Shown here: in pieces, positions 42,461 to 57,243 of the stretch
Layout: the number at the start of each line of letters is the position of its first letter
Numbering within the stretch: position 1 is the first letter of the stretch
Notes under the pieces: generated by a model
What the model was told of the DNA's origin: nothing
The model's database searches: none
Seen by the model: the letters and a program-made list of their open reading frames with translations, nothing else
Translations under genes and position numbers: made by a program
Origin: Desulfuromonadales bacterium
GTDB taxonomy: Bacteria; Desulfobacterota; JAENJC01
Direction of reading: 5' to 3'
Assembly: GCA_919902985.1 (NCBI GenBank)
Contig: CAKKSC010000021.1
Location: forward strand, 29,676-93,675
Length of the DNA: 64,000 nt

Positions 42461-42499
42461 GTTACGGAATAGTTACAGGGAAATTAAGATTTGGTTACA
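42461..42499 (-). promoter_or_regulatory. Pho-box-like array: GTTACG / GTTACA / ATTAAG / GTTACA at 11-bp phasing
   Basis: Hexamers start at 42461, 42472, 42483 and 42494. The nearest repeat is 54 nt upstream of the small Cys-protein ATG (42407). A TATATAAT-like -10 hexamer lies between the array and the ATG. Confidence 0.6.
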
Positions 42500-42527
42500 A
42501 TTCGCATGTTTTTTATAGATCGAACTT

Positions 42528-43568: not shown

Positions 43569-43608
43569 AACCTCTCCTTATATATTTGTCCCGAAAATAG
43601 CCGTTCTT

Positions 43609-43672
43609 TTGTAGGGGAGGGGCTTGTCCCCTCCAGATTATTCGGGCGGTCGCAAGGGACCACCCCTACGGA
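43609..43672. repeat. GTAGGGGAGGGGCTTGTCCCCTCCAG...GCAAGGGACC.CCCCTAC REP-like element; a second copy at 56649..56708
   Basis: The two copies share ttgtaggggaggggcttgtcccctccag and caagggacc(a/g)cccctac blocks. Both lie between co-directional minus-strand genes. Confidence 0.7.
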
Positions 43673-43675
43673 GCT

Positions 43676-44680
43676 TCAAGATTTTTTTGCTATTGACGAA
43701 CGCACCTTGACGTCGGTCTCTACGAGTGGAACCCCAAACCCTTTTGAGAAGCGGCTTTGCACGTCCTGACGTCTCATGTTCCCGACAATGTCTTCATCAA
43801 AACGAACACATCCTTTCTGAAATATCAGCAGATCTGTACTGCTGCCAGGACGGTACAGGCTCTTGGGCTGCCCCTTTTTAAGAAACATGCCGGGGACCAC
43901 AGGTTGCGGAGATTCATACCGTTCCCCGGAATAGCACTGGATTATCTCCCCTATCATAAGGGCCACTACTTCGATCATTGCCACCAACCCGATCCCAGTC
44001 CCCCCTGGGACATCGGTATCCATTACAGTGACAATCCTCTTGTTCTTTGAATAAGGAGTCACTACCTTCACAACCGCACCGGGGTTGCACGCATGATATG
44101 TCCCGTCTATCTCGTATATATCCCTGACCAGGCCGTCAACGGGAATATGGTTGTAATGATATTGTTCCGGCGTCAGGCGGAACAGGGCGAAATCGCCTTC
44201 TTTAAACGCCTCAAGCCACTCTTCTTTGTTGCGCCCCAACAGTTCCTCATAAACAAAGAACTTGTCCTTTAAGAATAAGGACAGGCCGTCAAAGGAGCCC
44301 ACCAGGACCTTTGAATCCGCTGGAGAAACGATTACAGAGCGGTCATCCGGCATGGGACGGCAATCCCAGTATCGTATCTTTCTTTCAAAGAAATGTCTTG
44401 GTGTTTTGAGGATTTCCGGGCTGTCCAGGCATTCATTCAGGTCAATCCCAGGGGTACTCAGCAACCATTTGGTAAATCCTGCTCCTGAACCCGGATAATC
44501 TCCGTAATTAATGAGTCCAATCAGGTCGGACGCCCAGGCGCTGGTCAGTCCCCTGAAGAGCGCAGGCATCTTCTCCCTTACTGAGGAATAAAGGAAGCTG
44601 ACGGGTCCGTCCTTATACAGCGGCTCTGTACATATCCTGTTCGTACTGCGTTCTAAATACTGATGTTTTATCGTAAACAT
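43676..44680 (-). CDS. Phosphatidylserine decarboxylase-family protein (Psd-like)
   Basis: PSD hallmark LTPEQYHYNHIPVDG (Y-H-x-x-H-x-P). A C-terminal G-S-S/T self-cleavage-type site (LYRPGSSTDLL). Length ~330 aa. Confidence 0.55.
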   Translation of the reverse strand: MFTIKHQYLERSTNRICTEPLYKDGPVSFLYSSVREKMPALFRGLTSAWASDLIGLINYGDYPGSGAGFTKWLLSTPGIDLNECLDSPEILKTPRHFFERKIRYWDCRPMPDDRSVIVSPADSKVLVGSFDGLSLFLKDKFFVYEELLGRNKEEWLEAFKEGDFALFRLTPEQYHYNHIPVDGLVRDIYEIDGTYHACNPGAVVKVVTPYSKNKRIVTVMDTDVPGGTGIGLVAMIEVVALMIGEIIQCYSGERYESPQPVVPGMFLKKGQPKSLYRPGSSTDLLIFQKGCVRFDEDIVGNMRRQDVQSRFSKGFGVPLVETDVKVRSSIAKKS

Positions 44681-47102
44681 AGTTTTCCTTGTCCATTATT
44701 TTCTCATATTGGCAGGCATCGTGATCGACGGAGGCAATGATTATACATATGAGCCTGATTATCTCTTCTATCGGCGCCGTCTCATCAAGTACCGCTTCCC
44801 GCATCCTGTCGAGAAACCTCTTAGGGTCTTCTCCCCCAAGTATTTTACCAAGCGCCGCCAGATGATCTGAACTCCCCTCTTTGAATAAGCTCTGAAGGTC
44901 TTCCTTAAGCATCATGAAGGATTCGGCGATATGAAGCTTCCTGAGGTCTTCCCTGTAATATCTCTCAGCTGAAAGATTGAACTCCTCAGCCTCAATGTTC
45001 ATGGGAGAGCGGGTGTTTAATTTCCCCATGATTCCGCTGGTCAACTTAGCTGAAACTGAATATTTCCGGGGATCGAATATCCGCTCCTTCAGGTCTGCCA
45101 CGGTCTCCTGCAAGTTCAGCATTTCTATCAGGTCTGCCGCATCTTCCTGTAGAATGCTTACTAATGTCTTACGGTACTGATCAATGCAGATACGCAGATA
45201 TCCGGGGTATCTGCGGCTATGCCGCACCGCTTTGGTCTTCTCCACTATCCTCTTGAGGAAAAGGTTGCCGGTGTCGCTCTTCACAAAAAAGGTGGGTATG
45301 TCTGTGGCTGCACAGAAGAATATCTGGCGGCGCTCACTTTCAACAGCCGGGTCATCAGGTATGTGCGAGTGAGTGAGCTTTCCCTCCGCCATATATTTGA
45401 ATGCCAATGCATTCAAAAGGTTTTGCAGGTTGGCGGCCTTCCCCATATCTTCCTCGATACTGGAGAAAAGACTGTAATAGCGCCCCTCAAAGCCGGAAAA
45501 CCCCATCTTTTCAAACTCCCTGAGCTTGTAGAGCAGATAAAGGGACATCTTGGAATCAAATATCCCCAGGTCAGCCAGGTCTTTTTTCAGGCGCAAATCG
45601 TTGCCGGGAGAGCCGTCAAGGGCGTTGCACTGATCTGTACTCATAAGAGATACAAGGTAATCGATAAGGCGCATATCAGGGACAAAATCCCCTCTGAGCC
45701 CCAATATATTCCTGATCGGGTTATCCAGCCATACCGGCCCGAACGGACTAATTGTCTGTCCCATGAATCTCAACCGTGCCTTGCTCTTCCATTTGCGCCA
45801 GATCATCCTGAGGTGTGTATAGTCAAGTTCATGAGGGAGGAACCCCAAGGCCTTTTCCGGGCGAAAGTCCGTAAAGTCGAGACGGTGAGGCGCTGCGCTG
45901 TATGTCCCTACGAATAAGGGCAGGAAATGCTCCACCATCTTGATTGACAGGTCGCCAAGGTACTTTTCGTGCGCCGCTGTAAACCCGGATGACTTGTCCT
46001 GGAGGTGATCCGACAATCTGATGCTCCCAAGGCTTATGTGCGTGCCGTTATTGGCAAGGCTGATGTTTGAAGTATTCGGCAATACAACCAGGTTGTTAGT
46101 GATGATCTCAGCGTCCCTAAGTTTGGCGACGCCGTTTAGCTGGCTTCTACTCAGGACCTGGTGACAGAGGTGCATATAGTTGTACTTTTCCTCCCCCCTG
46201 TCCCACCCTGAAAGGCAGGGGTTCATGAACAACTCTCTGTAAAAGGAGTCTGAGATGATCCCGTTCAACTGTTTCTGCCTGACCGGCGGAAGGGAGGAAA
46301 AATATACCTTTACCTTCTGTCCGTTTTCTCTGAGCATGAATTTGTTGTTTGCGTAGGCAGTTAGAAGCTGTGTAAGGAGGAACCTCTTTGAGCTTTCCTT
46401 TGCAACAGCCCTTCCCATGCCTGTTGCAGACCTCAGAGGCACGACATAAAAGGAGAATGTCTCCGGGGATGTGTTGTCGTTGAGAAAGTGGTCAAGCAGC
46501 CGCTCCCCCCTGTGTAAGACGAGTCCGGGACTGCTTCCCTGTGAGGCCATTGCATCGGCCAGGGAAAGTTTTAGAAGATAGCTGACAGGGATGCGGATAA
46601 ACTCCCTGCCATGTTCATAGAGGAAAAACCTGTCCTTGTCGCTCCTGGAACTGCTGAAAGGATTTTTCTTGTCGGCTCGGAGGTCCGAGATGAAGAGGTT
46701 GTAGACCTGCCGTGACAGGGTCTCCCTTGGGAATCTGACCCAACTGTTTTCCCATACATTGTCGGCGTTATCGTTGAGGAACCTCTCAAGCTCTGAAATC
46801 ACTTTTTTGGGCGCCACGCCGGATGAGGCCCTCCTGATGATGTTCCTGAAGTAGTTGGACTCCCTTATAGTCAGGGGGAGGTCGACGTTGTCGGCTGTGC
46901 CTTCAACCGCAACCTGAAGCTCGTTTTCAGAACCGGAGGTAGTGTCGTTCAGGGAAAAGGGGAGCGCCTCGACAGGCAGCCGGGATGTCCCAAGATCAAT
47001 CCCGAGCAGTTCAAGCATCTTCCTTGGGTCATCTGGCAGGCTTCCGCTTCTCCCCCAGTCATATGATAGCCGGTCATTCGTAAGCGCCATAAGCCTGCTC
47101 AT
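44613..47102 (-). CDS. Uncharacterized 829-aa protein, translationally coupled to the downstream Psd-like gene
   Basis: Long ORF that overlaps the Psd-like gene's 5' end by 68 nt. I recognised no known catalytic motifs. A Pho-box-like array lies ~200 nt upstream. Confidence 0.5.
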   Translation of the reverse strand: MSRLMALTNDRLSYDWGRSGSLPDDPRKMLELLGIDLGTSRLPVEALPFSLNDTTSGSENELQVAVEGTADNVDLPLTIRESNYFRNIIRRASSGVAPKKVISELERFLNDNADNVWENSWVRFPRETLSRQVYNLFISDLRADKKNPFSSSRSDKDRFFLYEHGREFIRIPVSYLLKLSLADAMASQGSSPGLVLHRGERLLDHFLNDNTSPETFSFYVVPLRSATGMGRAVAKESSKRFLLTQLLTAYANNKFMLRENGQKVKVYFSSLPPVRQKQLNGIISDSFYRELFMNPCLSGWDRGEEKYNYMHLCHQVLSRSQLNGVAKLRDAEIITNNLVVLPNTSNISLANNGTHISLGSIRLSDHLQDKSSGFTAAHEKYLGDLSIKMVEHFLPLFVGTYSAAPHRLDFTDFRPEKALGFLPHELDYTHLRMIWRKWKSKARLRFMGQTISPFGPVWLDNPIRNILGLRGDFVPDMRLIDYLVSLMSTDQCNALDGSPGNDLRLKKDLADLGIFDSKMSLYLLYKLREFEKMGFSGFEGRYYSLFSSIEEDMGKAANLQNLLNALAFKYMAEGKLTHSHIPDDPAVESERRQIFFCAATDIPTFFVKSDTGNLFLKRIVEKTKAVRHSRRYPGYLRICIDQYRKTLVSILQEDAADLIEMLNLQETVADLKERIFDPRKYSVSAKLTSGIMGKLNTRSPMNIEAEEFNLSAERYYREDLRKLHIAESFMMLKEDLQSLFKEGSSDHLAALGKILGGEDPKRFLDRMREAVLDETAPIEEIIRLICIIIASVDHDACQYEKIMDKENYVYDKTSVFRTQYEQDMYRAAV

Positions 47103-47298
47103 ATTTCTTCCTCATTGGATATCTGTGGTTATAGTCAATAGCAAACTTGCGTAAACAATATCTTCACTTAAGACCGGCCATAAGTTTGCAGCTTCGATAT
47201 AAAAACTTTCTGATGGCAGTCTATGGCCTTTTCGCCTCGTTCGGCAGTGGGGTTTGCAATGACCTTGGTCCTCACACTGGCAACTATAAATACTTTAT

Positions 47299-47337
47299 GT
47301 TACAGGGATGTTAAGGTTGTGTTAAGAATTGGTTAAT
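47299..47337 (-). promoter_or_regulatory. Pho-box-like array (variant): GTTACA / GTTAAG / GTTAAG / GTTAAT at 11-bp phasing
   Basis: Hexamers start at 47299, 47310, 47321 and 47332. It sits upstream of the 829-aa/Psd-like operon. Confidence 0.5.
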
Positions 47338-47357
47338 TTTTTGGGGAGAGAGATGGT

Positions 47358-47651
47358 TTACCCGTTAAGACCTTCAATAAAGCCCATCACCTCTTCATTT
47401 GAAGCCATATCGGAGATCATGGAGTCGATGAACTTCATGATGTCTATCTCACTGGGCTTATAAAGGAGTGTAAGGCTTCCTGTCATAGGGTTAGTCTGGA
47501 TGTCTATTATTGACGGGGGGAATGTGACAAAGGAAAAGTTTCTGATGACCTCTGGGATATCTTCGACCTTGACGGAGGAAAGTCTCTTAATAAAGGGGAC
47601 ATCAAGTCTAATGCGTCCAGGGATATGATGGGCAACTTTGTAGGTAATCAT
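47358..47651 (-). CDS. Small HMA-like domain protein with conserved basic motif H-H-I-P-G-R-I-R-L (CoBaHMA-like, tentative)
   Basis: 97 aa (MITYKVAHHIPGRIRLDVP...NPMTGSLTLLYK). It shares the H-x-x-PGR-[IL]-R ... NP[LM]TGS[IL] pattern with 54785..55156, 53996..54454 and the N-terminus of the P-type ATPase. Confidence 0.45.
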   Translation of the reverse strand: MITYKVAHHIPGRIRLDVPFIKRLSSVKVEDIPEVIRNFSFVTFPPSIIDIQTNPMTGSLTLLYKPSEIDIMKFIDSMISDMASNEEVMGFIEGLNG

Positions 47652-47655
47652 CTGG

Positions 47656-47889
47656 CTATCCTATTTGTCTGAAATGAAGTCTTGCTGTCAGAACGTATTT
47701 TACCTTTCTGGGGACGAGTATGGGAAGATAGTCCTTAACCTTTGCCCCTTTCCTGGTCTTATCTAAGGCAACTTCATAGAGGAGTGCGACGTCGTCAAAA
47801 GGTATCCCCGTATCGTTGGCGATTGACTCAATATTATGAAGATGCTGCTTTTTTTCCTTTTCGTTGCCATAGAGTGCGGTTTTGTCCAT
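47656..47889 (-). CDS. Small hypothetical protein
   Basis: 77-aa ORF between the HMA-like gene and the CDF gene. No recognisable motif. The ORF is open to 47925. Confidence 0.3.
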   Translation of the reverse strand: MDKTALYGNEKEKKQHLHNIESIANDTGIPFDDVALLYEVALDKTRKGAKVKDYLPILVPRKVKYVLTARLHFRQIG

Positions 47890-47942
47890 AGAGATGCCCT
47901 TTTTATATAAGAATGATCGTAACAATGACGAAATCTACCAGC

Positions 47943-48803
47943 TTATCCCTCTTCATAAATCTCAACATAGACATCATGGAAACCGAACTTGCTCTCCAAT
48001 CTTTTCTTCAAGGCCTTTATCTCATCCCTGCTGCAAACCTGCCCATCTGTCCTTACCCTTGCAGCCATTATTGTCTTTTCTGGGGTTAATACCCAGACAC
48101 GCAGGTCTTTCACCTGCTTTATGCAGTCAAGACCGTTCCCTATAAATCTTCTTACTCCCTCAATGTCCATCCCGACAGGAGTCCCCTCCATGAGTATCCC
48201 AATGCTGCCTTTCAATAAACTGTATATTGGATATGCCACCAGGAGACCTATAAAGATACTTGTTACTGCATCCATCACGTAAAGACCGGTGAGTTGAATT
48301 ATCACTGAGGATACGATGACTCCCACGGAACCCAGGGCATCATTCAGAATGAGGATATAAGCCCCTTTTATGTTTATATCCCCGGAGCTTTTGTAGAGTT
48401 TGAGCAAGCCAAAACCGTTTACCAGAAGACCGAGAAGCGCTATGTAAAACACCTTCCCTGCATCCAATGCTTGGGGATTTCTTATCCTGTTGTAGGAATC
48501 GACCAGAACAAAAAAAAGCACAAAACCCACCAGCATTCCGTTAAAGAGCCCGGACAGGACCTTGGCCCTTTCATAGCCGAATGTATTGTTATTGTCCGCA
48601 GGCCTTTTGCTGAGTTTCGCGACATAAAGGACTATCAACTGGCCTGTTATGTTAATCGCCATGAATGACGCGTCTGTAAGCAGGGCAAGACTGTTATAAT
48701 AGAGCCCTCCAAGCAGTTCTATAAAAAAGTAACCTATTGTTAATATAAAGACAGTGCCCAGGTTGTAGGTCATTGTTTGCTCCGAAAATAGTTTTTTAAC
48801 CAC
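47943..48803 (-). CDS. Cation diffusion facilitator (CDF) family divalent-cation efflux transporter
   Basis: Six TM helices with the CDF signature region (SLALLTDASFMAIN in TM2, ILNDALGSVGVIV in TM5) and a C-terminal cytoplasmic domain. Confidence 0.8.
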   Translation of the reverse strand: MVKKLFSEQTMTYNLGTVFILTIGYFFIELLGGLYYNSLALLTDASFMAINITGQLIVLYVAKLSKRPADNNNTFGYERAKVLSGLFNGMLVGFVLFFVLVDSYNRIRNPQALDAGKVFYIALLGLLVNGFGLLKLYKSSGDINIKGAYILILNDALGSVGVIVSSVIIQLTGLYVMDAVTSIFIGLLVAYPIYSLLKGSIGILMEGTPVGMDIEGVRRFIGNGLDCIKQVKDLRVWVLTPEKTIMAARVRTDGQVCSRDEIKALKKRLESKFGFHDVYVEIYEEG

Positions 48804-48879
48804 CCCACCGAACCTCCCCTTACCAAGGGGAGGAATTAAATATTCCCCTCCTTGGCAAGGAGGGGCTAGGAAGGTGGTT
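48804..48879. repeat. GC-rich CCCCTCC...GGAGGGG hairpin cluster (REP-like), one of about seven similar hairpins in the window
   Basis: ccaccccacc...cccttaccaaggggagg...cccctccttggcaaggagggg...ggtgg. Similar CCCCTCCC/GGGAGGGG hairpins occur near 25316, 25770, 26446, 27836, 52868 and 62935. Confidence 0.6.
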
Positions 48880-50073
48880 CTAAAGCATCCCTGCCTTATC
48901 CGTAAGTTCCCACGGAAGCCCTATATCCATCCTCCCCACATGGCCATAGGCAGCCAGTTTTCTGTAAAAGCCCCCCTTATTGCTGGATGGCAAGTGCCTG
49001 AGATTGAATTGTCTTATTATTCCGGCAGGCCGAAAGTCGAAATGTCTTTCAATCCGAGAGGCTATTTCTTTATCCGGCATCTTCCCTGTTCCGAAGGTCT
49101 CAACTTGAATGCTTACGGGCCTTGAAAGGCCGATAGAATAGCTTAACATTACTTCACATTCGTCAGCCAGCCGGGCTGCCACAACATTCTTGGCGGCATA
49201 ACGGGCTGCATAGGCCCCGATCCTGTCGATACGCGATGGATCCTTGCCGCTCAAGGCTGCTCCGCTGTGTCTTGAATATTCTCCGTAAGTGTCTATGGCG
49301 TTCTTCCTTCCGGTCAGGCCCGAATGGATCGCAGGTCCTCCCAGGATAAAAGGCCCGTCGGGGTTGACGAATATCCTTGTATCGTTATCCGGTTTTATCT
49401 CTTCATCCTGAAACACGGAGTTGATGAGTGCTTCCCTTATATCCTCCTCAAGCTTATTCAAGCCTGGCCCTCCTGATGAGGCAACTATATTCTGGCTTGC
49501 GATCACTGTTATGCTATGGATCCTGAACGGCCGCCCATCTTTATATTCAACTCCTACCTGGGTCTTGCCGTCAGGGGCAAGGTATGGAAGCGTCCTTTGA
49601 AGTCTGGCTGACGTAAGCTTCCTTGAAAGCTTGTGAGCAAGCCAGATCGGGAGCGGCATAAGGGAAGGGGTCTGGTTGCAGGCAAAGCCGAAGACCGTAA
49701 CCTGGTTCTTGGCCTGGATGCGCTCAATATCATCATCGGAAAGGTTCTTCTCATCAAAAAAATCCTGTCCGTCATAAGGCTGTTCCCTGAGGCTCGTAAT
49801 TATACTGCACGTCTTAGAGTTAAAGGCGTTCTGGTCATAACCTATCTGGCTTATCACCTGCCTTGCAACGTTTGAAAAATCTATAATTGCCCTTGACTCA
49901 AAGCGGGCTGCGATAAAAACAATGGCGGTAGAGAGGGCACACTCCGCAATGACCTTTGAATAAGGGTCCTGCTGGAGAAAGTGATCGACAACGGCGTCGC
50001 TGATAATGTCGCAAAGCTTGTCAGGATGCCCTTCTGTTACCGACTCGGATGTAAACATAAAGTCCTGTTTCAT
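48880..50073 (-). CDS. S-adenosylmethionine synthetase (MetK)-like protein, divergent
   Basis: FTSESVTEGHPDKLCDIISDAV matches the MetK N-terminal motif. GGPAIHSGLTGRKNAIDTYGEYSRHSGAALSGKDPSRIDRIGAYAARYAAKNVVAARLA matches the MetK C-terminal P-loop region, but the usual GGGAFSGKD appears as SGAALSGKD. Overlaps the ATPase stop by 4 nt. Confidence 0.65.
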   Translation of the reverse strand: MKQDFMFTSESVTEGHPDKLCDIISDAVVDHFLQQDPYSKVIAECALSTAIVFIAARFESRAIIDFSNVARQVISQIGYDQNAFNSKTCSIITSLREQPYDGQDFFDEKNLSDDDIERIQAKNQVTVFGFACNQTPSLMPLPIWLAHKLSRKLTSARLQRTLPYLAPDGKTQVGVEYKDGRPFRIHSITVIASQNIVASSGGPGLNKLEEDIREALINSVFQDEEIKPDNDTRIFVNPDGPFILGGPAIHSGLTGRKNAIDTYGEYSRHSGAALSGKDPSRIDRIGAYAARYAAKNVVAARLADECEVMLSYSIGLSRPVSIQVETFGTGKMPDKEIASRIERHFDFRPAGIIRQFNLRHLPSSNKGGFYRKLAAYGHVGRMDIGLPWELTDKAGML

Positions 50074-53000
50074 TGTTTCACCTCGCTTTTTGTCGCCTCA
50101 TTTACCACCAGCGGAAGAAATGCGCTCCCCCCGATAACAAGACCGTCAACAATGCTTAACGGAGCAATTCCAAGGAGACCTCGCAACCCCGGCACTACAA
50201 GGGTCAATCCCTGCAATGCAAAGGAACCGGCCAGGGCGGCGTTCAGATAGCCGTTGGACTGCATGCCCGATCCGGGGGCACTATCGAAGATCCCATGTGT
50301 CTCCGACCTGCAGCTTAACGCATGAAGAAGCTGTCCGGAGGTCAGACTCATAAATGCCATGGTGCTTGCCTGCGGCCCAATTCCATACCTCATAATGCCG
50401 TATCCATATGCGCTGAGGGCCCCGGCTGAAAGCACTGAGGACTCGAAGAAAATCCGCTTGAAATCAGAACTCTTTACAATCGGCTCATCGGGGTCCCTTG
50501 GGGGGCGTGTAAGAACGTCCGGTTCCGGCGGCTCCATTGCCAGGGCAAGGCCTGGCGCTATATCGGACATGATATTGATCCATAAGAGCTGAATTGCGCT
50601 CAACGGCTCTCCAAAGCCTCCGGCGATAGATGTGAACATGACCGTTATCTCACTGATATTCGTGGAAAGAAGGAAATGGACAGACTTCCTTATGTTGTGG
50701 TAGATGGTCCTCCCCTGACTTATGGCAATGATCATGGTTTCAAGGTTGTCATCCTCAATCACGACATCCGCAACCTCGCGGGCTACATCGGTTCCGGTCT
50801 GCCCCATGGCTATCCCCACGTCTGCTGCTTTCAAAGCCGGGCCGTCGTTAATCCCGTCACCCGTCATGGCGACAACCTTGCCGGCCCTTTGAAAGGACTG
50901 GACTATCTGGAGCTTATGGGCCGGACTGACCCTGGAGAAGACCCGGACCCTCTCGCACAGGGCCGTCAACACCTTGGGATCCATTTCTTTCAGGTGGGAA
51001 GAGTCAAGTATCTCAAGCTGCTCCTCCATGCTGAGATTCAACTCTTTCCCGATAGAGTAGGCGGTGGGGCTCTGGTCGCCGGTGATCATGACCGTATCAA
51101 TACCTGCTGCATGGAATTTGCCTATCAGTTCTTTAACGCCTTTACGGACAGGGTCTGCCATGCCTACAAGGCCCAGCCATATAAGGTCGTATGAGGTCGA
51201 GAGGTCGAGAGGTTGAGAGGTTGAGAACTCCTCATCATCACAGATTCTCAACTTCTCATCTTCTGAATGAGTATAAGCCATGCCGAGAACCCGCAATGCA
51301 TCCCCTGCCATGCGCTCATTCACAGTCTCTATAGAGAAACGGTCGTTGTCGGTCAAAGGAAGTTTTTGGCCGTCTTTTATAAACCAGTTACATTGAGAGA
51401 GCACCTCATTGGGGCTCCCCTTTACCGCCGCCAAAAGTCTCTGTCCACCTGTCCCTTCTGCTGATGCATGATAGGAAACCATGTAGTTGCGGTTTTCGGA
51501 GCGGTGGACCATCCTGGTCAGCGGAAATTTCTTCCTTAGGCGGTCTATATCAACGCCGGTGCTGATTGCCATATGCAGCAGCGCATTCTCGGTAGACGAA
51601 CCGTTCAGGATGTATTCTCCATCGTTCATGGTTACCTCACTCTCATTGCACAGTACTGATATATGAATTAACCTGAGCAATTCGTCGTTGGAGTAAGGAT
51701 TTACGATGCCGTTTCCGGAAACAAAATTATTTTCAGAGATCCTTATATGTTTCATTCCGGTGTGTATTGCAACAACCGACATCCTGTTCATGGTAACGGT
51801 CCCTGTCTTGTCAAGGCAGATGGTCTGGACCGCACCCAGCGCCTCCACAGCGTCAAGATGCCTTATCAGGACGTTGTGTCTGCGCATCTTTCGAATGCCT
51901 AAAGCCAGGGTGGTTGTTGCGACCGTTGGAAGACCTTCCGGAACTGCGGCAACGGCCAGGGATATGGCAGACTTAAACATATGAAGAAAACCGTATCCTC
52001 TAAGAATGCCTGCAATGAATACTATGCCGCACACACCGCCGCAGATAAGCACTATTTGAGTGCCTATAGTATCAAGTTGTTTTTCCATGGGAGTTTGAGG
52101 AGGCCTTGTCCCGCCGACCAGGATTTGAATCATCCCTATCTCTGTATATCTGCCGGTGGCAATAATCACAGCCAGCCCCTGTCCGCCGGTAACGAGGGTC
52201 CCCATGTAGACGATGTTCGTCCTGTCCGCAAGAGGGATATTCTCGTCGGATGCAATAATTTCAGCCGTCTTGATAGCAGGCATACTTTCGCCTGTGAGGG
52301 CCGATTCGTCGACGCTTAAGTGTGTGGCCTCTATAAGTCTGGCATCTGCTGCCACATAACTTCCAGGTCTAAGGACAATAATGTCGCCAGGCACAAGTTT
52401 ACCGGCATTTATATTAGTGTAAAGGCCGTCTCTTATAACAATGGCTGACGGTCTGACAAGGCTCTTAAGGGAATGGATCGTCCTTTCCGTCTGCATTTCG
52501 GTAAAATACCCTATGGCCGCATTTATGCCTACTACACCAATTATAACCGCCGCATCAGCCACTCCTCCGGTAAAAATGGATATGCCAGCGGCCACTCCCA
52601 GGAGCGCTACAGGCAAAGATTTAAACTGTTCAAACAGCACGCTGAGCCCGGAGCGCGGGACAGACTCAGGGAGAAGATTCGGGCCGAATCTTTTTGTCCT
52701 GTCACTGACCGATTCAACAGTTAATCCGTTTTTCCGGTCAGTACCCATCAGATCAAGGACCTGGGCAGTACCCATAAGGTGCCAGGCTTCTACCGGCTGT
52801 TCCTGAGCACTGTTAATCAGCTTTCTGAGGGCCGGTCTGCCTGTTATCGGGGAGAAGCCAACTAACTTTTCCCCCCCTTTAGAAAAAGGGGGAGAGGAGG
52901 GGTTTGGTGTCTCAGGATTACTATTGTTGAAATAATCAATTACTACGCTTTCAAGGAGAGATGCAATGTCATTGGATGTATTCCCGGAGTTGAAGAGGAC

Positions 53001-53159
53001 AAGGACGTTGCCGGTCAGAGTATTAATGGCAACGTATGAAATCTCCTGCCTGTGTGAGAACCTTGCCTCTATATATTCCCTCAGGGGCTCCGAACGGTAA
53101 AGCCCTTTTACCTTATATCGAGCCCTTCCGCTTACAGCGGTGTTTATAGTCTGAACCAT
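50070..53159 (-). CDS. P-type cation-transporting ATPase (type II, Ca2+/cation-ATPase-like) with an extra N-terminal HMA-like (CoBaHMA-like) domain
   Basis: Phosphorylation site CLDKTGTVTMN; TGDQ (MITGDQ); hinge GDGINDGPALKAADVGIAMG; a Cation_ATPase_N-like segment (AWHLMGTAQVLDLMGTDRKNGLTVESVSDRTKRFGPN). The first ~60 aa (RARYKVKGLYRS...AINTLTGNVLVLFN) resemble the small HMA-like proteins. Confidence 0.85.
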   Translation of the reverse strand: MVQTINTAVSGRARYKVKGLYRSEPLREYIEARFSHRQEISYVAINTLTGNVLVLFNSGNTSNDIASLLESVVIDYFNNSNPETPNPSSPPFSKGGEKLVGFSPITGRPALRKLINSAQEQPVEAWHLMGTAQVLDLMGTDRKNGLTVESVSDRTKRFGPNLLPESVPRSGLSVLFEQFKSLPVALLGVAAGISIFTGGVADAAVIIGVVGINAAIGYFTEMQTERTIHSLKSLVRPSAIVIRDGLYTNINAGKLVPGDIIVLRPGSYVAADARLIEATHLSVDESALTGESMPAIKTAEIIASDENIPLADRTNIVYMGTLVTGGQGLAVIIATGRYTEIGMIQILVGGTRPPQTPMEKQLDTIGTQIVLICGGVCGIVFIAGILRGYGFLHMFKSAISLAVAAVPEGLPTVATTTLALGIRKMRRHNVLIRHLDAVEALGAVQTICLDKTGTVTMNRMSVVAIHTGMKHIRISENNFVSGNGIVNPYSNDELLRLIHISVLCNESEVTMNDGEYILNGSSTENALLHMAISTGVDIDRLRKKFPLTRMVHRSENRNYMVSYHASAEGTGGQRLLAAVKGSPNEVLSQCNWFIKDGQKLPLTDNDRFSIETVNERMAGDALRVLGMAYTHSEDEKLRICDDEEFSTSQPLDLSTSYDLIWLGLVGMADPVRKGVKELIGKFHAAGIDTVMITGDQSPTAYSIGKELNLSMEEQLEILDSSHLKEMDPKVLTALCERVRVFSRVSPAHKLQIVQSFQRAGKVVAMTGDGINDGPALKAADVGIAMGQTGTDVAREVADVVIEDDNLETMIIAISQGRTIYHNIRKSVHFLLSTNISEITVMFTSIAGGFGEPLSAIQLLWINIMSDIAPGLALAMEPPEPDVLTRPPRDPDEPIVKSSDFKRIFFESSVLSAGALSAYGYGIMRYGIGPQASTMAFMSLTSGQLLHALSCRSETHGIFDSAPGSGMQSNGYLNAALAGSFALQGLTLVVPGLRGLLGIAPLSIVDGLVIGGSAFLPLVVNEATKSEVKQ

Positions 53160-53225
53160 GACAGAACTGGTTTCCTTTCTAACTTCTACAGGAGTGACAG
53201 CTTTTACAAGACCTTATTAGTGTCT

Positions 53226-53948
53226 TTATCGTTTATTAATAGGATATTTGCCCTGTTTCCCTTTTACCCTGCCGGCAGCCTCAGGCTCCTCAATTTCTTC
53301 CTTTACCGGAAAGACCCTTTCTTCCAGAGTGGCTGCAGCAGCCGTCCTCGGCTCCGGCAGGGCAGCACATGCGATGTCCTTAATGCCGCCAACCACACCG
53401 ACCAGTATGTCTTTAACCGACCTGACGGCTGTGTTTCCGATATCGCCGGCCGCCTCAATGGCGCTACTGACAGCGACAGCAGCCACCTGTCCCACATTTC
53501 CACCTACTTCCCTTGTTGCCTCTATGACGCCGTCAACTGTCCTTCTGGCGACCATGGCCACATCGGCCCCGATCTCAGCTGCTCCATTGACAGCGCCTTT
53601 TACCGTCTGTCCAGCAGCAGTAATCACGTCTCCGCCCACATCGCTCACACCCATTACGACCCCCTTTGCCACACTCTTGGTGCTAAGGGTGAGCCCTGTG
53701 CCTACCTCCTCAGTTGCGGCTATTGCCCCCTTAATGACATCTTTTGTAATGTTTACGGTTTCGCCCGCCACGTCGCCTGTTGTCCGCAGGGCATTGGAAA
53801 CAGTGGCCCTCACAAGGCCCACGATCTCCGCCTGGATTTCATTTATTCCTTTCAGGCTTCCTACGATACCTTCCTTAACCGAGTTGCCTGTGCTGCTTAA
53901 TCCTACTTTGATTGTTGTCCCGCTTGTTTCTGTTGTTTCGGTGATCAT
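53226..53948 (-). CDS. Repeat-rich amphipathic protein (Val/Gly/Ala/Thr-rich ~11-residue periodic repeats)
   Basis: AAGGAGG RBS 7 nt before the ATG at 53948. The sequence is dominated by repeats such as TVKGAVNGAAEIGADVAMVARRTVDGVIEATREVGGNVGQVAAVAVSSAIEAAGDIGNTAV. The opposite-strand ORF is low-complexity and rejected. Confidence 0.45.
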   Translation of the reverse strand: MITETTETSGTTIKVGLSSTGNSVKEGIVGSLKGINEIQAEIVGLVRATVSNALRTTGDVAGETVNITKDVIKGAIAATEEVGTGLTLSTKSVAKGVVMGVSDVGGDVITAAGQTVKGAVNGAAEIGADVAMVARRTVDGVIEATREVGGNVGQVAAVAVSSAIEAAGDIGNTAVRSVKDILVGVVGGIKDIACAALPEPRTAAAATLEERVFPVKEEIEEPEAAGRVKGKQGKYPINKR

Positions 53949-53995
53949 TTTATTCCTCCTTTGAATTTTTACCACAAAGCCTTGCGGGTTAATTT

Positions 53996-54454
53996 TTATG
54001 CTCCTTTGAGAAAGATGTTCATCCCGTACCAGATAGCTGTATACCAGGGGATTGAAGCCGCGTTTCCAATACTGATCTGGTATAGACCCGCAGCCAAAAG
54101 TATTAGAAAGGCCAGGGTTGAGATATCCAGTTCATGGCCTGTTAACCTTTTAACCTGCGTATTGAAGTCATTGAAAGTAGTTTTTATCCCTGCAGCCACA
54201 GTAGGGGTCTGATTTGCTCCGTTAAGCCTGAAGAGCTTATTGGTTTCAGCAATTTTCATTACCGATGTAGAGTTTCCTGAATGGATTATCAGTATACTCC
54301 CGGTCAGTGGATTGACCTCTGTCCGGTCTATTCCCTTATGTTGCTGCAATAAGGCGTTGGCGTTCTTAAAGTAACTATCATCGCCCTTTTTGGATGGAAT
54401 TTTTACCCGTATTCTTCCAGAGGTCTGATGGCTGAGGTACGCATCAGGCAGCAT
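53996..54454 (-). CDS. HMA-like (CoBaHMA-like) domain protein with C-terminal hydrophobic segment
   Basis: MLPDAYLSHQTSGRIRVKIP...NPLTGSILIIHS, then a predicted TM helix (ISTLAFLILLAAGLYQI). The ORF is open to 54535. Confidence 0.4.
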   Translation of the reverse strand: MLPDAYLSHQTSGRIRVKIPSKKGDDSYFKNANALLQQHKGIDRTEVNPLTGSILIIHSGNSTSVMKIAETNKLFRLNGANQTPTVAAGIKTTFNDFNTQVKRLTGHELDISTLAFLILLAAGLYQISIGNAASIPWYTAIWYGMNIFLKGA

Positions 54455-54755
54455 TAACAGCGCCCTCCTGAGCGATGCCGGCTGTTTGCACGACCTCCTG
54501 CTGGGGCTCGGCCAGCTCGGATTTCGACTCGGCAATAAGGTCTTCGACTACCTCCTGCATCTCGGCCATTACCTCTTTTCCTTTTTCAAAGACGATGAGT
54601 CCCCCCTTGATTGCGCCCTTGGCCAGGGGCTTTGCGACCGCTGCCGCAATAGGTATAACGATAGGCGCCAGTATTGCAGCGCCCAGACCTATTACAAGCA
54701 TAGGTACGATGTTGCTCCCTTTTAGAACGCCTGTGATGTCATCAAACAGTGCCAT
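54444..54755 (-). CDS. Small membrane-associated protein resembling the DUF5132 family (tentative)
   Basis: 103 aa: MALFDDITGVL...PMLVIGLGAAILAPIVIPIAAAVAKPLAKGAIKGGLIVFEKGKEVMAEMQEVVEDLIAE. One hydrophobic helix followed by an amphipathic acidic tail. Confidence 0.4.
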   Translation of the reverse strand: MALFDDITGVLKGSNIVPMLVIGLGAAILAPIVIPIAAAVAKPLAKGAIKGGLIVFEKGKEVMAEMQEVVEDLIAESKSELAEPQQEVVQTAGIAQEGAVNAA

Positions 54756-54784
54756 TTGTCCTTTACCTCCTGATTTGAAATAGG

Positions 54785-55156
54785 CTATATGAGTATAGCC
54801 AAATATGATAAAGCGCTTCCTTCAAATGCCTTCTCTACAAATGTCCCGAAAAGGGCTTTTTTAACGACATGTCCTGCCTTTGTAACAGCAGAGTGTATAT
54901 ACTGGTCGTTTGTTATGGCCCTTGAAGGATCAAAATAGCTGGCCCTTCTGAGAACGCCTAATATCTCCCTGGAATGAACAGTCCTTGGATCATAGTTGAT
55001 TACAATGCTTCCAGTAATAATATTAATTTCGGTAGACAATATTCCCTTGATTTGCCGGAGCAGACCCCCAACCTCCTCAGCTATCCAACCTTTCCCTTTA
55101 ATCGCTGGATTTTTAACCCTTAATCTACCAGGGACATCGTGAATATAATGATCCAT
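54785..55156 (-). CDS. Small HMA-like (CoBaHMA-like) domain protein
   Basis: GGAGGTG RBS 8 nt before the ATG at 55156. MDHYIHDVPGRLRVKNPAIK...NIITGSIVINYDP. The ORF is open to 55189. Confidence 0.45.
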   Translation of the reverse strand: MDHYIHDVPGRLRVKNPAIKGKGWIAEEVGGLLRQIKGILSTEINIITGSIVINYDPRTVHSREILGVLRRASYFDPSRAITNDQYIHSAVTKAGHVVKKALFGTFVEKAFEGSALSYLAILI

Positions 55157-55175
55157 CCAACTCACCTCCACTTTT

Positions 55176-55379
55176 TTATTTAAAAGCAAAGTCGTTATAT
55201 CTTTGTCCGTGATTTAAGCCATGCACCATGAGTAGTGGACAGCGGTGATGCTCTTCGGTTTTGCAGTACCTTTCAAGTTCAAAGGCGCTTGGAGTCATAT
55301 GAAATGTAGAGGCATTACACATCTTATTTTTTTTGATAGTTCCTAAATACGGGCAATCGCCTATTTCACTTGGCTTCAT
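55176..55379 (-). CDS. Small Cys4-His protein, paralogue of 42198..42407; first gene of the cation-cluster operon
   Basis: 67 aa: CPYLGTIKKNKMCNASTFHMTPSAFELERYCKTEEHHRCPLLMVH, with the same Cys/His spacing as the paralogue. Confidence 0.45.
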   Translation of the reverse strand: MKPSEIGDCPYLGTIKKNKMCNASTFHMTPSAFELERYCKTEEHHRCPLLMVHGLNHGQRYNDFAFK

Positions 55380-55422: not shown

Positions 55423-55461
55423 ATTACAAGATTGTGACAGTTGCATTAAGATTTGGTTACA
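55423..55461 (-). promoter_or_regulatory. Pho-box-like array: ATTACA / GTGACA / ATTAAG / GTTACA at 11-bp phasing
   Basis: Hexamers start at 55423, 55434, 55445 and 55456. The nearest repeat is 44 nt upstream of the ATG at 55379. A TATTTATAG -10-like element follows. Confidence 0.6.
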
Positions 55462-56512
55462 GTTGAGCCTTTCTGAACGATACTGTAAAGGTGCTTCCGA
55501 CTCCCTCTTTGCTTTTTACCGAGATACTGCCGCCCATTGCATCCATAAGCAATCCGACAATATAAAGGCCCAGTCCGGTCCCTTGTGCCCGTTCGCTGCC
55601 TTTAGCACGAAAAAACTTTTCAAATATCTTTGGCAATTCATCCTCAAAGATTCCGTATCCTGTATCCTTGACAGAGACCTCAATGCCGTTGGATATATTG
55701 TTGGTATATATCCAGATATTCCCATTTTTCCTGTTATATTTAACGGCATTGGATAAGAGGTTTATCAGTACCTGTCTTATCGCAACGGTATTACCGCCGA
55801 CCACACAGGGCTGGTCGTTTATGAGATGGATATCTATCTCCTTACTCACCGTATTGGCACTGACTGTGTTTATTGCCCAGTTAAGCTGCTCGGAAATGTC
55901 GACATTTTCCAAAGGAAATAAACCATCGCCTTTCTCAAGTTTAGACAAGAGAAAGGCATCGTTTAAAAGGCTGTCCATATGGTTGGCGCTGGAATTTACG
56001 TAATACAGGTATTTGCCGTTATCTCCATTCTCCATTGCCAGCTTGCTGAAGCCTCCAACAGTAGTAAGAGAGTTTTTCAGCTCATGGACCAGATATTGAA
56101 GGGAGTCATGCCCTTCTTTCTCTTTTCTTTTAAGGGTTTTTATAGTCTTTTCTTTTTCCAGAAGCCTCTTTACCCTGAGCATCAGTTCCTTTACTGAAAA
56201 CGGCTTCGAAAGGTAATCATCAGCGCCAATGGTTAGACCCTTAATCTGTTCCTCCTTTGTAGACAGGGCAGTGAGCATGATTATAGGTATAGTCATACCT
56301 TTAGAACGCAAGGCTTCACAAGTTTCCCATCCGTTAAGACCTGGGAGCATTATGTCCAAAAGTATGAGATCGAGGTTATGCGTCTGTAAAGCAATTATAG
56401 CCTCTTCCCCGTTTTGGGCAGTCACGGTGCTGTACCCTTCCTTGTGGAGGTTGTACCTGAGCAGCTCAATAGTGTCCTTTGTGTCCTCAACGATTAAGAC
56501 CGTTTCATTCAT
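55457..56512 (-). CDS. Hybrid response regulator - histidine kinase (REC - HisKA - HATPase_c)
   Basis: N-terminal REC (VLIVEDTKD...ILLDIMLPGLNG...IIMLTA...K). H-box LVHELKNSLTTV. N, G1 and G2 boxes (LLSNAVKYN, DTGYGI, GTGLGLYIV). Confidence 0.8.
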   Translation of the reverse strand: MNETVLIVEDTKDTIELLRYNLHKEGYSTVTAQNGEEAIIALQTHNLDLILLDIMLPGLNGWETCEALRSKGMTIPIIMLTALSTKEEQIKGLTIGADDYLSKPFSVKELMLRVKRLLEKEKTIKTLKRKEKEGHDSLQYLVHELKNSLTTVGGFSKLAMENGDNGKYLYYVNSSANHMDSLLNDAFLLSKLEKGDGLFPLENVDISEQLNWAINTVSANTVSKEIDIHLINDQPCVVGGNTVAIRQVLINLLSNAVKYNRKNGNIWIYTNNISNGIEVSVKDTGYGIFEDELPKIFEKFFRAKGSERAQGTGLGLYIVGLLMDAMGGSISVKSKEGVGSTFTVSFRKAQL

Positions 56513-56648
56513 CTCGGCATCCAGTGGAATATGGCTGTCACTATCCCGACAACTGTAATGGCTGCCAGAAACATTTCTATTACCTTCTGTGATTCGTCGT
56601 TAAACATCTTCCCCTCCTTTTTGTTTCCGAAAATAATACCCGCCGTTT

Positions 56649-56708
56649 TGTAGGGGAGGGGCTTGTCCCCTCCAGTTGCGGGGGGGCACAAGGGACCGCC
56701 CCTACATG
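56649..56708. repeat. Second copy of the GTAGGGGAGGGGCTTGTCCCCTCCAG...CCCCTAC REP-like element
   Basis: See 43609..43672. The 69-aa ORF 56509..56718 is largely a translation of this repeat. Confidence 0.7.
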
Positions 56709-57130
56709 GATGTTTCAATTATTTTACCTGGAGACCTTGTAATAGCCATGAGTCTCAACCCTCCAAGCGCTGTAATCAAAAGGGACATGGCAATCAGTTC
56801 CTGCCACTCAAGTCTGTGTTGATAGAGCGCTATCATTAGTTCCCTCATGATAAAGACCAGGGTCATGTCTGCGATAAGGGTTATCCTGACCCTGTGGAGC
56901 TCAAAGTATTCCAGGAGTCCCTTGAAAAGCTCCAGGACAACAATCATCCCAAGGATGTCCGAGACCAGCGTATTAAACCCGACCTCTATGCTTGCACTGA
57001 ATATCTTTCCCATGTCGAGAAAAATCCTGGCAGTGCCGATCACGAGGGCAAGGATGACAAACAGGGTAAGTGTCTTGAACACAGTATCTGTTGCGACCTG
57101 CGAGGCCTTCTTAAAATCAACATTTATCAT
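56702..57130 (-). CDS. Small 4-TM membrane protein resembling the phosphate-starvation-inducible PsiE family (tentative)
   Basis: 142 aa with four hydrophobic helices and a central ...LELFKGLLEYFELHRVRITLIADMTLVFIMREL... region similar in layout to PsiE. Preceded by a Pho-box-like array. Confidence 0.4.
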   Translation of the reverse strand: MINVDFKKASQVATDTVFKTLTLFVILALVIGTARIFLDMGKIFSASIEVGFNTLVSDILGMIVVLELFKGLLEYFELHRVRITLIADMTLVFIMRELMIALYQHRLEWQELIAMSLLITALGGLRLMAITRSPGKIIETSM

Positions 57131-57177
57131 ACGTTTATCTCCTTTTTATGATTTCAGATGGAGTTTAACAAAGGATT

Positions 57178-57216
57178 GTTACGGGTTTATGACGGATAGG
57201 TTAAGATTTAGTTACA
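57178..57216 (-). promoter_or_regulatory. Pho-box-like array: GTTACG / ATGACG / GTTAAG / GTTACA at 11-bp phasing
   Basis: Hexamers start at 57178, 57189, 57200 and 57211. The nearest repeat is 48 nt upstream of the PsiE-like ATG (57130). It lies in the intergenic region shared with the divergent intI gene. Confidence 0.55.
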
Positions 57217-57243
57217 ATTTTAATTAAAAGGATTTTCTGTGTT

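Follow-up and report, generated by a model that had tools for sequence, protein, structure and literature searches.

The closest published parallel to the operon described here is the neighborhood of ccyA in Microcystis aeruginosa PCC 7806, in which the genes of two CoBaHMA proteins, one ending in a C-terminal helical hairpin and one solo, and of two DUF5132 proteins, each with a transmembrane (TM) segment and a long soluble helix, lie beside that of a Ca2+/H+ exchanger and are co-expressed with calcyanin, the marker of intracellular amorphous calcium carbonate (bioRxiv 10.1101/2024.07.07.602159). The same preprint equates Pfam family HMA_2 (PF19991) with CoBaHMA, a domain defined by the ferredoxin fold of HMA proteins, the lack of a CxxC motif, an additional β0 strand with a conserved His, and conserved basic residues (Benzerara 2022, PMC8890360). 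In a 64-kb window, which is the whole stretch analyzed (positions 29,676 to 93,675 of contig CAKKSC010000021.1 from a Desulfuromonadales bacterium), we found an operon in which four CoBaHMA modules and a DUF5132 protein accompany a P-type ATPase with a SERCA-like set of ion-site residues, a helical-repeat protein (here called Rep), a MetK paralogue and a CDF transporter. Based on its Pho boxes, the P2 architecture and SERCA-like ion-site residues of the ATPase, the conserved order of the core genes, the gene fusions and the Microcystis parallel, we hypothesize, with a little less than even confidence, that the operon encodes a Pho-controlled unit for the extrusion of a divalent cation, probably Ca2+, regulated by CoBaHMA and accessory proteins.

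The window operon shares with Microcystis the hairpin and solo types of CoBaHMA protein and DUF5132, encoded beside a transporter, which is a Ca2+/H+ exchanger in the cyanobacterium and a P-type ATPase, probably for Ca2+, in the window. The central gene of the ccyA neighborhood, calcyanin with its (GlyZip)3 region, is absent from the window operon, whereas MetK, Rep and DUF3562 are missing from the Microcystis locus, for which Pho boxes are not reported. Furthermore, Microcystis is an oxygenic phototroph, and the carriers found here are mainly metagenome-assembled genomes (MAGs) of largely anaerobic groups (Desulfobacterota, Thermodesulfovibrionales). The parallel suggests that CoBaHMA, DUF5132 and a Ca2+ transporter may form a general module and not a calcyanin accessory.

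The operon runs on the minus strand from 55379 down to 47358 and comprises ten open reading frames (ORFs) separated by -11 to +76 nt (Table 1), the overlaps between ATPase and MetK and between DUF5132 and the 152-aa protein being 4 and 11 nt, respectively. All ten genes of the co-directional cluster proposed in a first-pass annotation of this DNA are present at or near the positions given there, and the single one left unnamed (47656-47925) encodes a DUF3562 protein, the start of which is probably at 47889. The ATPase is identical to NCBI entry MEK6725793.1 and the 152-aa CoBaHMA-TM protein to MEK6725795.1. The operon is one transcription unit within a Pho island of about 27 kb. The Pho-box-like head noticed earlier is a real array, CTGTAAC-N4-TCTTAAT-N4-CTGTCAC-N4-TTGTAAT, which ends 43 nt before the first ATG, within an upstream region of 77 nt, and arrays of the same type precede pstS and psiE. 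These arrays resemble the Pho box of E. coli, which reads CTGTCAT-N4-CTGTCAT. A three-repeat Pho pattern gave 13 matches in the window versus 0.48 expected, all of them on the minus (coding) strand, in front of genes or operons of that strand, and grouped in six sites. From these arrays we infer Pho control of the operon and its induction at low inorganic phosphate (Pi); the proposed link to Pi stress is also supported by the adjoining pst genes and by the arrays of related loci.

The ATPase had been judged a type II, Ca2+-type pump and not a P1B heavy-metal pump, and this is borne out by its P2 architecture (E1-E2_ATPase, Cation_ATPase_N and Cation_ATPase_C in Pfam), by its best NCBIfam models (PMR1-type and SERCA-type) and by its best PDB matches (human SPCA1 and Listeria LMCA1). 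The core motifs DKTGT and PEGLP are found at residues 450 and 406. At the positions which we take to correspond to E309/N768/E771/N796/T799/D800/E908 of SERCA, a numbering based on the motifs of rabbit SERCA1a and on the SPCA1 alignment, the sequence reads E/N/E/N/S/D/Q (E408, N834, E837, N862, S865 and D866 in the window), with conservation in 27 to 31 of 31 cluster-linked ATPases that share 55-90% identity. This residue set is predicted to be that of a Ca2+-like cation pump with both sites nearly intact, and it carries neither a P1B nor a flippase signature. The protein resembles the P2A Ca2+ pumps (SERCA, SPCA1/PMR1, LMCA1) in its architecture, DKTGT, TM4 PEGLP and the predicted Ca2+-site residues of TM5 and TM6; unlike them, it scores below the equivalog cut-offs, has Gln at the E908 position, carries an extra CoBaHMA domain and lies in Pho-linked synteny.

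Four proteins of the operon had been noted to share a module of about 60 aa lacking CxxC and resembling CoBaHMA, and in the Pfam search all four matched PF19991, two of them (the hairpin-anchored and the tail-anchored protein) above the gathering cut-off of 30 bits and two (the solo protein and residues 5-76 of the ATPase) just under it. G-R-x-R and N..TG are invariant in an alignment of the four modules, no Cys occurs within the first 75 residues of any of them, which leaves no CxxC site, and the β0 His ahead of G-R-x-R is present in the three stand-alone proteins and absent from the ATPase copy. The 152-aa protein spans the entire 154-position HMA_2 profile, and its AlphaFold2 (AF2) model (56-sequence alignment, mean confidence score pLDDT 83) displays the order β0-β1-α1-β2-β3-α2-(β4), that is, the βαββαβ fold with the extra strand, followed by a linker helix and a C-terminal hydrophobic helical hairpin. 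In 56 homologues, R14 and R16 never vary, and H9 and K23 show at least 90% conservation. Likewise, the 123-aa protein ends in a conserved hydrophobic tail (ALFG..VEKA.EGS.LS.L..LI), also found in its homologue of locus L004 (the prefix L denotes loci related to that of the window). The modules therefore belong to CoBaHMA, with the HMA ferredoxin fold, the extra β0, no CxxC and basic residues in β1, and occur in four flavors: soluble, tail-anchored, hairpin-anchored and pump-fused. What sets the operon apart from the family as published is its set of four paralogues and the fusion of one copy to a P2 ATPase; in the window, this copy lacks the β0 His. CoBaHMA domains are reportedly fused to membrane proteins of transport and lipid metabolism. 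In the cluster-linked ATPases the N-terminal G-R-x-R is retained in 29 of 31, and PF19991 is found at the N-terminus in more than 100 of the top 120 ATPase homologue clusters (precomputed Pfam column), whose MAG labels include Nitrospirota, Thermodesulfovibrionales, Dissulfurispiraceae, Planctomycetota (one homologue) and Deltaproteobacteria. It is plausible that the CoBaHMA proteins act as membrane-associated adaptors, two of the paralogues having predicted hydrophobic C-terminal anchors.

The combination of a pump that bears an N-terminal domain of HMA fold with neighboring genes for separate proteins of that fold recalls CopA and CopZ/Atox1, in which a Cu(I) P1B-ATPase with an N-terminal HMA domain is served by a stand-alone HMA chaperone. 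The system in the window differs in that its modules lack metal-binding Cys, the pump core is of the P2 type and several of the copies are membrane-anchored; docking between copies would be hypothetical. An ordinary resistance operon for heavy metals (Cu/Zn/Cd), as the HMA label would imply, would agree with the HMA-superfamily fold of the four modules and with the presence of a CDF, but TM4 carries PEGLP instead of CPx, the P1B model TIGR01525 scores 230 versus a cut-off of 346, the CDF has no H-D/H-D site and the operon is headed by Pho boxes. This reading is thus exceedingly improbable, and we consider it ruled out by the Cys-free modules, the P2 core and the lack of a Zn site in the CDF.

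The DUF5132-like protein is confirmed as a member of PF17195 (cut-off 25 bits) and consists of a hydrophobic N-terminal stretch (residues ~13-46) and a helix with a conserved acidic face (E57, E61, E65, E68, E71, D72, E76, E80 and E83), which is a candidate partner for the basic patch of CoBaHMA. DUF3562 (PF12085, cut-off 26.3 bits) has 22 homologues in related loci. In our literature searches DUF3562 appeared in no paper, and DUF5132 and PF19991 solely in the Microcystis preprint. The first gene encodes, as had been claimed, a protein with four conserved cysteines (Cys4; C9, C21, C39 and C47), which matches no Pfam or NCBIfam family and has homologues in 21 related loci. A 69-aa paralogue, Cys4b, at 42198-42407 (-) shows the same C-x11-C-x17-C-x7-CP pattern, with a counterpart in L010 (17259-17468), and is the first gene after another Pho box (42461-42500), heading an operon for a diacylglycerol (DAG) kinase, PAP2, a glycosyltransferase and an ArsC-like protein; Cys4 genes are therefore recurrent leaders of Pho units and not specific to the cation cluster. 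In other loci a Zn_ribbon_InsA-like protein recurs ahead of the 123-aa tail-anchored CoBaHMA protein (L004 3031-3722, L090 16641-17316, L093 16122-16792), with PhoH nearby in L004 and L093. In the window this place is taken by Cys4, which suggests a zinc-ribbon/CoBaHMA pair.

A metagenome scan with the Rep alignment returned 483 loci, 79 of which were fetched and their ORFs compared with the window proteins; it was far more productive than a pattern-based genome scan with the ATPase, which gave 5 loci. Among those loci whose flanks were long enough, the ATPase comes after Rep in 43/55 (other arrangements in 12/55), Rep is preceded by CoBaHMA-TM in 40/48 and by DUF5132 in 41/48, and MetK follows the ATPase in 19/25, counts which overstate independence because the metagenomic loci are not independent lineages and several are near-duplicates. 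The usual order is Cys4 and solo CoBaHMA pointing one way, then DUF5132, CoBaHMA-TM, Rep, ATPase, MetK, CDF and/or CorA, and DUF3562 pointing the other way, followed by the tail-anchored CoBaHMA in the first orientation, and was found in one MAG each of Limnocylindrales (Chloroflexota), Nitrospirae and Dissulfurispira and in further long contigs, in most cases immediately next to pstSCAB-phoU. The conserved synteny claimed for the cluster is thus real: the core order DUF5132-CoBaHMA-TM-Rep-ATPase-MetK recurs in dozens of metagenomic loci and is conserved in at least three phyla (Nitrospirota, Chloroflexota and Desulfobacterota MAGs). A cultured carrier was not found, the best lead being Dissulfurispira sp. 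GCA_036745535.1, apparently a MAG by its accession. Apparent fusions of Rep to the ATPase N-terminus and to the hairpin of the CoBaHMA-TM protein also occur, which are possibly gene-calling artefacts. The pstSCAB-phoU genes directly adjoin the cluster in L013, L017, L022, L026, L036, L037, L064, L083, L089, L090, L092 and L093, other flanking genes encode alkaline phosphatase, Metallophos, PhoH, MGS-domain and OlsB/OlsA-like proteins, and the psiE/hybrid kinase unit (55457..57228) is conserved beside the cluster in close relatives. Related loci also have Pho-box-like arrays, in front of psiE, Cys4, pstS, pstC and Rep. Ahead of the core operon itself, however, most of them, across phyla, carry a different conserved element, the 16-nt box TAGGYAAGTAATGAAA, which is located about 8 nt from the -35/-10-like hexamers downstream of it and 40-150 nt ahead of DUF5132, with 48 occurrences, 36 of them before DUF5132, versus about 1.6 expected by our own estimate. 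Neither the window nor its close relatives have this box; they use a Pho box before Cys4 instead.

In the extrusion unit that we propose, a PhoB-type regulator would bind the 11-bp-periodic repeats under Pi limitation and turn the operon on, coinciding with induction of pstSCAB-phoU, psiE and the lipid-remodeling genes. Ca2+, or a hard cation like it, would be expelled from the cytoplasm by the ATPase, and the CDF in the window, or CorA in other lineages, would handle a second cation. The need for such a system might lie in a shift of cation buffering under Pi starvation, with polyphosphate, nucleotides and anionic phospholipids being consumed; metal-phosphate import and the metals of periplasmic Pho enzymes are further possible needs. 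In fungi, phosphate and metal homeostasis are coupled (PMC5007097, PMC10437122). The Cys-free CoBaHMA modules, one fused to the pump, two anchored and one soluble, would serve as regulators or adaptors on the cytoplasmic side of the membrane. They could act via their conserved basic patch, by docking on the CoBaHMA domain of the pump in the manner of CopZ and CopA, or by contacts with an anionic partner, for example anionic lipids or the acidic DUF5132 helix. Rep would be a soluble scaffold.

Rep is rich in V, A, G and T, its self-similarity peaks at lags of 11, 22 and 44 residues, and it is predicted to be soluble, with no hydrophobic or TM segment. Its AF2 model (pLDDT 76; >90 for residues 90-180) is a stack of seven helices connected by short turns, one long helix being followed by six with about 18-25 residues each, and a Foldseek search of the PDB with this model matched only de novo designed helical-repeat proteins. 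Rep has no match in Pfam or NCBIfam, and an exhaustive profile search gathered a family of 787 representatives at E<=1e-3. The (GlyZip)3 region of calcyanin is composed of three apolar motifs of about 50 aa, which consist of Gly-X3-Gly units and have a Gly-Pro at their center (PMC8890360). Compared with this published description, and not with a calcyanin sequence, Rep was rejected as a (GlyZip)3 protein (period 11/22, a lag-4 score of -0.1, only 7 GxxxG, helices of 19-22 residues with short turns between them, and no hydrophobic segment). It was likewise rejected as an apolipoprotein or phasin, no relative being found in Pfam, NCBIfam or the PDB fold search. Of its first-pass description, the repeat of about 11 residues stands; the length is 240 and not 241 aa (ATG at 53948), and the glycine-zipper, apolipoprotein or phasin type does not hold. 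Since the model is that of a monomer, a lipid-binding amphipathic state of Rep is still conceivable. A subgroup of Rep homologues bears a C-terminal MucR/Ros zinc finger (L008 10001-11077, L009 1747-2823, P0003, P0005, P0007 and others); the gene adjoins DUF5132 and two uncharacterized 242-aa proteins, with no ATPase in view, and these loci represent a putative variant system with a predicted DNA-binding Rep.

A repeat scaffold, together with soluble domains that are all predicted to be cytoplasmic, would also suit a system in which the pump, the anchored CoBaHMA proteins, DUF5132 and Rep build or load a membrane-bounded cation store at low Pi. Such a store might be of Ca-carbonate type, as in calcyanin cyanobacteria, acidocalcisome-like, or analogous to the ferrosome with its P1B-ATPase operon. 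The fez operon of ferrosomes combines a P1B6-ATPase with small membrane proteins. The window operon would likewise be stress-regulated, with a P-type ATPase at its center and small partner proteins in the membrane, but the ATPase class and the metal differ and no accessory families are common to both, which leaves an analogy only. In favor of a compartment, the same trio of CoBaHMA-hairpin, solo CoBaHMA and DUF5132 lies with a Ca2+ transporter beside ccyA in Microcystis and is co-expressed there, and new, unidentified inclusions appear in P-limited Desulfovibrio alaskensis (PMC5193443). Nevertheless, nothing like (GlyZip)3 is encoded, Rep, with its period of 11/22 and no TM segment, bears no likeness to known coat proteins, and the island, in which a few ORFs lack an assignment, yielded neither bicarbonate nor carbonic-anhydrase genes. 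In addition, nothing tells an internal membrane apart from the cytoplasmic one, and the carriers are diverse anaerobes, for which we found no report tying inclusions to these genes. We therefore regard the store as distinctly unlikely, and each of its variants as no less doubtful.

The MetK paralogue scores 384.2 bits against TIGR01034 (equivalog cut-off 309.4) and contains all three Pfam methionine adenosyltransferase (MAT) domains; both halves of its earlier label, a MetK and a divergent one, stand, the divergence being located in the pocket. In the window, using E. coli numbering, GAGDQG is replaced by QAKNQV (D118N), D238 by His, K269 by Arg and GGGAF by SGAAL, and the Mg/phosphate residues (HPDK, K165, K265 and D271) are kept. 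These differences were read against the E. coli sequence and are the same against PDB 7r3b. In all 29 cluster-linked MetK proteins position 238 is His and 269 is Arg; GAGDQG is mostly x-x-[KR]-N-Q-V and GGGAF most often SGAAL. Since the altered residues presumably surround the amino-acid part of methionine and S-adenosylmethionine (SAM), a changed substrate or changed kinetics is possible. No Rfam family was found at gathering scores in the window or in L007, L089 and L090, and so there is no riboswitch before MetK. The hairpin after MetK lies at the end of the conserved core and is possibly a partial terminator or processing site; the consensus scan for promoters and terminators, with counts no higher than in shuffled sequences, was used solely to flag it.

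Lipids offer another explanation for this enzyme. In Desulfovibrio alaskensis G20 (PMC5193443) and Desulfatibacillum alkenivorans (PMC11181052), Pst, PhoR and genes for glycolipids or ornithine lipids matter at low Pi, over 90% of the phospholipids being swapped, and the latter species makes unexplained butyramide cysteine lipids (PMC11181052). Term searches of the main texts found no 'P-type' in PMC5193443, no 'ATPase' in PMC11181052, and 'adenosylmethionine', CoBaHMA and DUF5132 in neither. Behind its Pho boxes, the window island carries the same kinds of genes as those of sulfate-reducer lipid remodeling, for a DAG kinase, a PAP2 phosphatase, a glycosyltransferase like monogalactosyldiacylglycerol (MGDG) or diglucosyl-DAG synthases, and proteins similar to PSD and Lgt. 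In L007 and L090, genes of OlsB/OlsA type are found at the flanks of the cluster. The operon might then serve the replacement of phospholipids by phosphorus-free lipids, with the pump merely co-regulated or adjusting membrane-bound cations, which we consider rather unlikely. No more probable is the accompanying division of labor, in which MetK would make an adenosylated donor (SAM or an analogue) for headgroups, and CoBaHMA, DUF5132 and Rep would sense or organize anionic lipids. The conserved MetK changes around the methionine moiety would fit, as would the binding of anionic lipids by CoBaHMA, which is a proposal only (Gaschignard 2024, as cited in a later paper). On the other hand, the tightest links are centered on the pump (the ATPase-MetK overlap and the DUF5132-CoBaHMA-Rep-ATPase order), the lipid genes vary by locus and no lipid-synthesis enzyme is encoded inside the operon. 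It seems improbable, more so than either the store or the lipid exchange, that the core is the machinery of a phosphate-starvation organelle of anaerobic bacteria, a membrane-bounded, Ca-loaded store with a Rep scaffold in which MetK makes a non-canonical adenosylated donor. Equally improbable is the extension by which the parts list would be related to cyanobacterial Ca-carbonate formation and the donor would serve, for example, the phosphorus-free sulfur/nitrogen lipids of sulfate reducers.

The CDF matches TIGR01297 at the family level (190.6 versus a cut-off of 82.35), and its closest PDB relative is ZnT7. The transport site reads F..N in TM2 and L..D in TM5, versus H..D and H..D in ZnT8, and the four residues are identical in 8/8 cluster-linked CDFs; a canonical Zn2+/H+ antiporter (ZitB/ZnT) was therefore rejected. 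The identity of this transporter had been correctly assigned in the first-pass annotation, but it is a variable accessory, found in 8/88 loci, and not a fixed part of the system, CorA being present instead in L007 and both in L093. The low-Pi phosphatases PhoX, PhoD and PhoA are metal-dependent, and activation of alkaline phosphatase is ZnT-dependent. The pump and CDF or CorA might accordingly bring Ca2+ and other metals to the periplasm for such phosphatases, and by analogy SPCA and ZnT5/6/7, which load enzymes of the eukaryotic secretory pathway, would be their counterparts. The nearest PDB relatives, SPCA1 and ZnT7, point in this direction, and alkaline phosphatase and Metallophos genes, with one TatA, flank the cluster in L007 and L091. 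Yet no phosphatase gene lies in or adjoins the window operon, a CDF without His ligands makes Zn2+ delivery unlikely, and MetK and the CoBaHMA set would be left unexplained; both the supply of metals and the eukaryotic analogy are hence highly improbable, though less so than heavy-metal resistance.

Several points weigh against the Pho-controlled extrusion unit that we favor. The ATPase remains under every Ca2+-ATPase equivalog cut-off (PMR1-type 622/798, SERCA-type 542/703, PMCA-type 394.5/507) and forms its own subfamily, so that the ion specificity cannot be safely assigned, and Q943 of TM8 stands where SERCA has E908. The second transporter varies among loci (CDF, CorA, both or none) and the CDF site has no His, and the cation could therefore be Mg2+, Mn2+ or another. 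The non-independence of the metagenomic loci also counts here. Where TAGGYAAGTAATGAAA precedes the core, nearby Pho boxes point to divergent genes, so that it is adjacency which speaks for Pho control beyond the close relatives. The MetK paralogue, which is strictly linked, and the MucR/Ros fusions of Rep are unexplained under every model, and the support as a whole is in silico. Of the coordinated divalent-cation system first proposed, the Ca2+-type pump, the Pho head and the conserved synteny persist; a calcyanin-like repeat protein and a fixed CDF do not.

Table 1. Coordinates of the operon, of the surrounding Pho island (window numbering) and of TAGGYAAGTAATGAAA examples (numbering of the related loci)
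Feature	Position	Strand	Remarks
Pho-box array, operon head	55423..55462	-	four 7-nt direct repeats, 11-bp period
Cys4 protein, 67 aa, first gene	55176..55379	-	no Pfam/NCBIfam match
Tail-anchored CoBaHMA (HMA_2) protein, 123 aa	54785..55156	-	PF19991 45.7 bits
DUF5132 protein, 103 aa	54444..54755	-	PF17195 42.8 bits
CoBaHMA-TM protein, 152 aa, TM hairpin	53996..54454	-	PF19991 56.6 bits
Rep, helical-repeat protein, 240 aa	53226..53948	-	no Pfam model; 11/22-residue periodicity
P2-type ATPase, 1029 aa, N-terminal CoBaHMA	50070..53159	-	Pfam, NCBIfam and PDB matches
CoBaHMA domain of the ATPase, aa ~1-76	about 52932-53159	-	PF19991 26.6 bits
MetK paralogue, 397 aa	48880..50073	-	Pfam and NCBIfam
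G+C-rich hairpin between MetK and CDF	48845..48865	-	consensus scan only; tail not T-rich
CDF transporter, 286 aa	47943..48803	-	Pfam and NCBIfam
DUF3562 protein, 77 aa from ATG	47656..47889	-	ORF reaches 47925; PF12085 34.6 bits
Solo CoBaHMA protein, 97 aa, last gene	47358..47651	-	PF19991 29.3 bits
Hybrid response-regulator/histidine kinase	55457-56512	-	upstream Pho-box unit
psiE	56702-57130	-	upstream Pho-box unit
Pho-box site before psiE	57167-57228	-	
Rest of Pho island	29897..47338	-	four Pho-box-headed units
Pho-box site before 829-aa/PSD-like/Lgt-like operon	47299-47338	-	
829-aa protein	44613-47102	-	
PSD-like protein	43676-44680	-	
Lgt-like protein	42528-43568	-	
Pho-box site before Cys4b-DAG kinase-PAP2-glycosyltransferase-ArsC-like operon	42461-42500	-	
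DAG kinase	41291-42208	-	then PAP2, MGDG-synthase-like and ArsC-like genes
Histidine kinase	start 37706	-	
REC-only gene	start 37357	-	
Pho-box site upstream of porin O/P unit	37323-37362	-	overlaps 3' end of REC-only gene
Lipoprotein and porin O/P unit	after Pho box 37323-37362	-	
Pho-box site before pstS	35203-35231	-	
pstSCAB-phoU	downstream of Pho box 35203-35231	-	followed by PhoB-like response regulator
PhoB-like response regulator, after phoU	29897-30580	-	
TAGGYAAGTAATGAAA examples	L090 8582-8597; L089 8556-8571; L007 8999-9014		

In the remainder of the island, the 829-aa protein has no Pfam or NCBIfam match, the PSD-like protein is divergent and the Lgt-like protein very divergent. 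Lgt moves diacylglyceryl onto a Cys thiol, and this trio and the MetK paralogue are, speculatively, candidates for the butyramide cysteine lipid pathway. A 35-aa ORF at 47168-47275 (-), just past the Pho box of the trio, resembles the N-terminus of the DAG kinase, and in the close relatives L010 and L011 the solo CoBaHMA gene is directly followed by Cys4b and DAG kinase. The block of 42528-47338 therefore looks like an insertion by which a Pho box and the 5' end of the gene for the kinase would have been duplicated. An LMWPc gene at 39033-39515 (-), the last of the lipid operon, is nearest to thioredoxin-type ArsC (132.7 bits versus a cut-off of 174) and would fit arsenate entry via phosphate transporters at low Pi; LMWPc genes also occur near the cluster in L004, L010, L017 and L092. 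Just beyond the psiE end, a tyrosine recombinase (Phage_integrase and Phage_int_SAM_4) is encoded at 57244-58293 (+), which is not conserved in L001. Between psiE and the hybrid kinase, an ORF of about 32 codons at 56515-56613 (-), read by eye, has an AAGGAGG, an ATG and the hydrophobic core MFNDESQKVIEMFLAAITVVGIVTAIFHWMPR, and its product may be a small membrane peptide; the stop overlaps the kinase start, and the equivalent gap in L001 is too short for such an ORF. The region 11286-28815 (+), which is rich in signaling genes and encodes several PAS/HAMP sensors, two GAF-HD-GYP-like proteins, a histidine kinase, a HEAT-repeat protein and aspartyl-tRNA synthetase, is unrelated to the operon.

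Our literature search found no paper on the operon, on Rep as a family, on this subfamily of MetK or on a link between CoBaHMA and Pho, and a 2024 survey of CoBaHMA, which lay outside this search, may list the ATPase fusion. CoBaHMA and DUF5132 have so far been discussed only around calcium-carbonate biomineralization in cyanobacteria, and here they are found in a conserved operon of a Ca2+-type pump, which provides a testable setting for the CoBaHMA domain family. The operon would also add to the bacterial Pho response a helical-repeat family of about 800 members, a MetK paralogue with a remodeled pocket and a CDF without His ligands. If the MetK lead is true, it may point to missing genes for phosphorus-free lipids in sulfate reducers, and if the link to a cation is true, the operon would represent a prokaryotic coupling of phosphate and calcium homeostasis.

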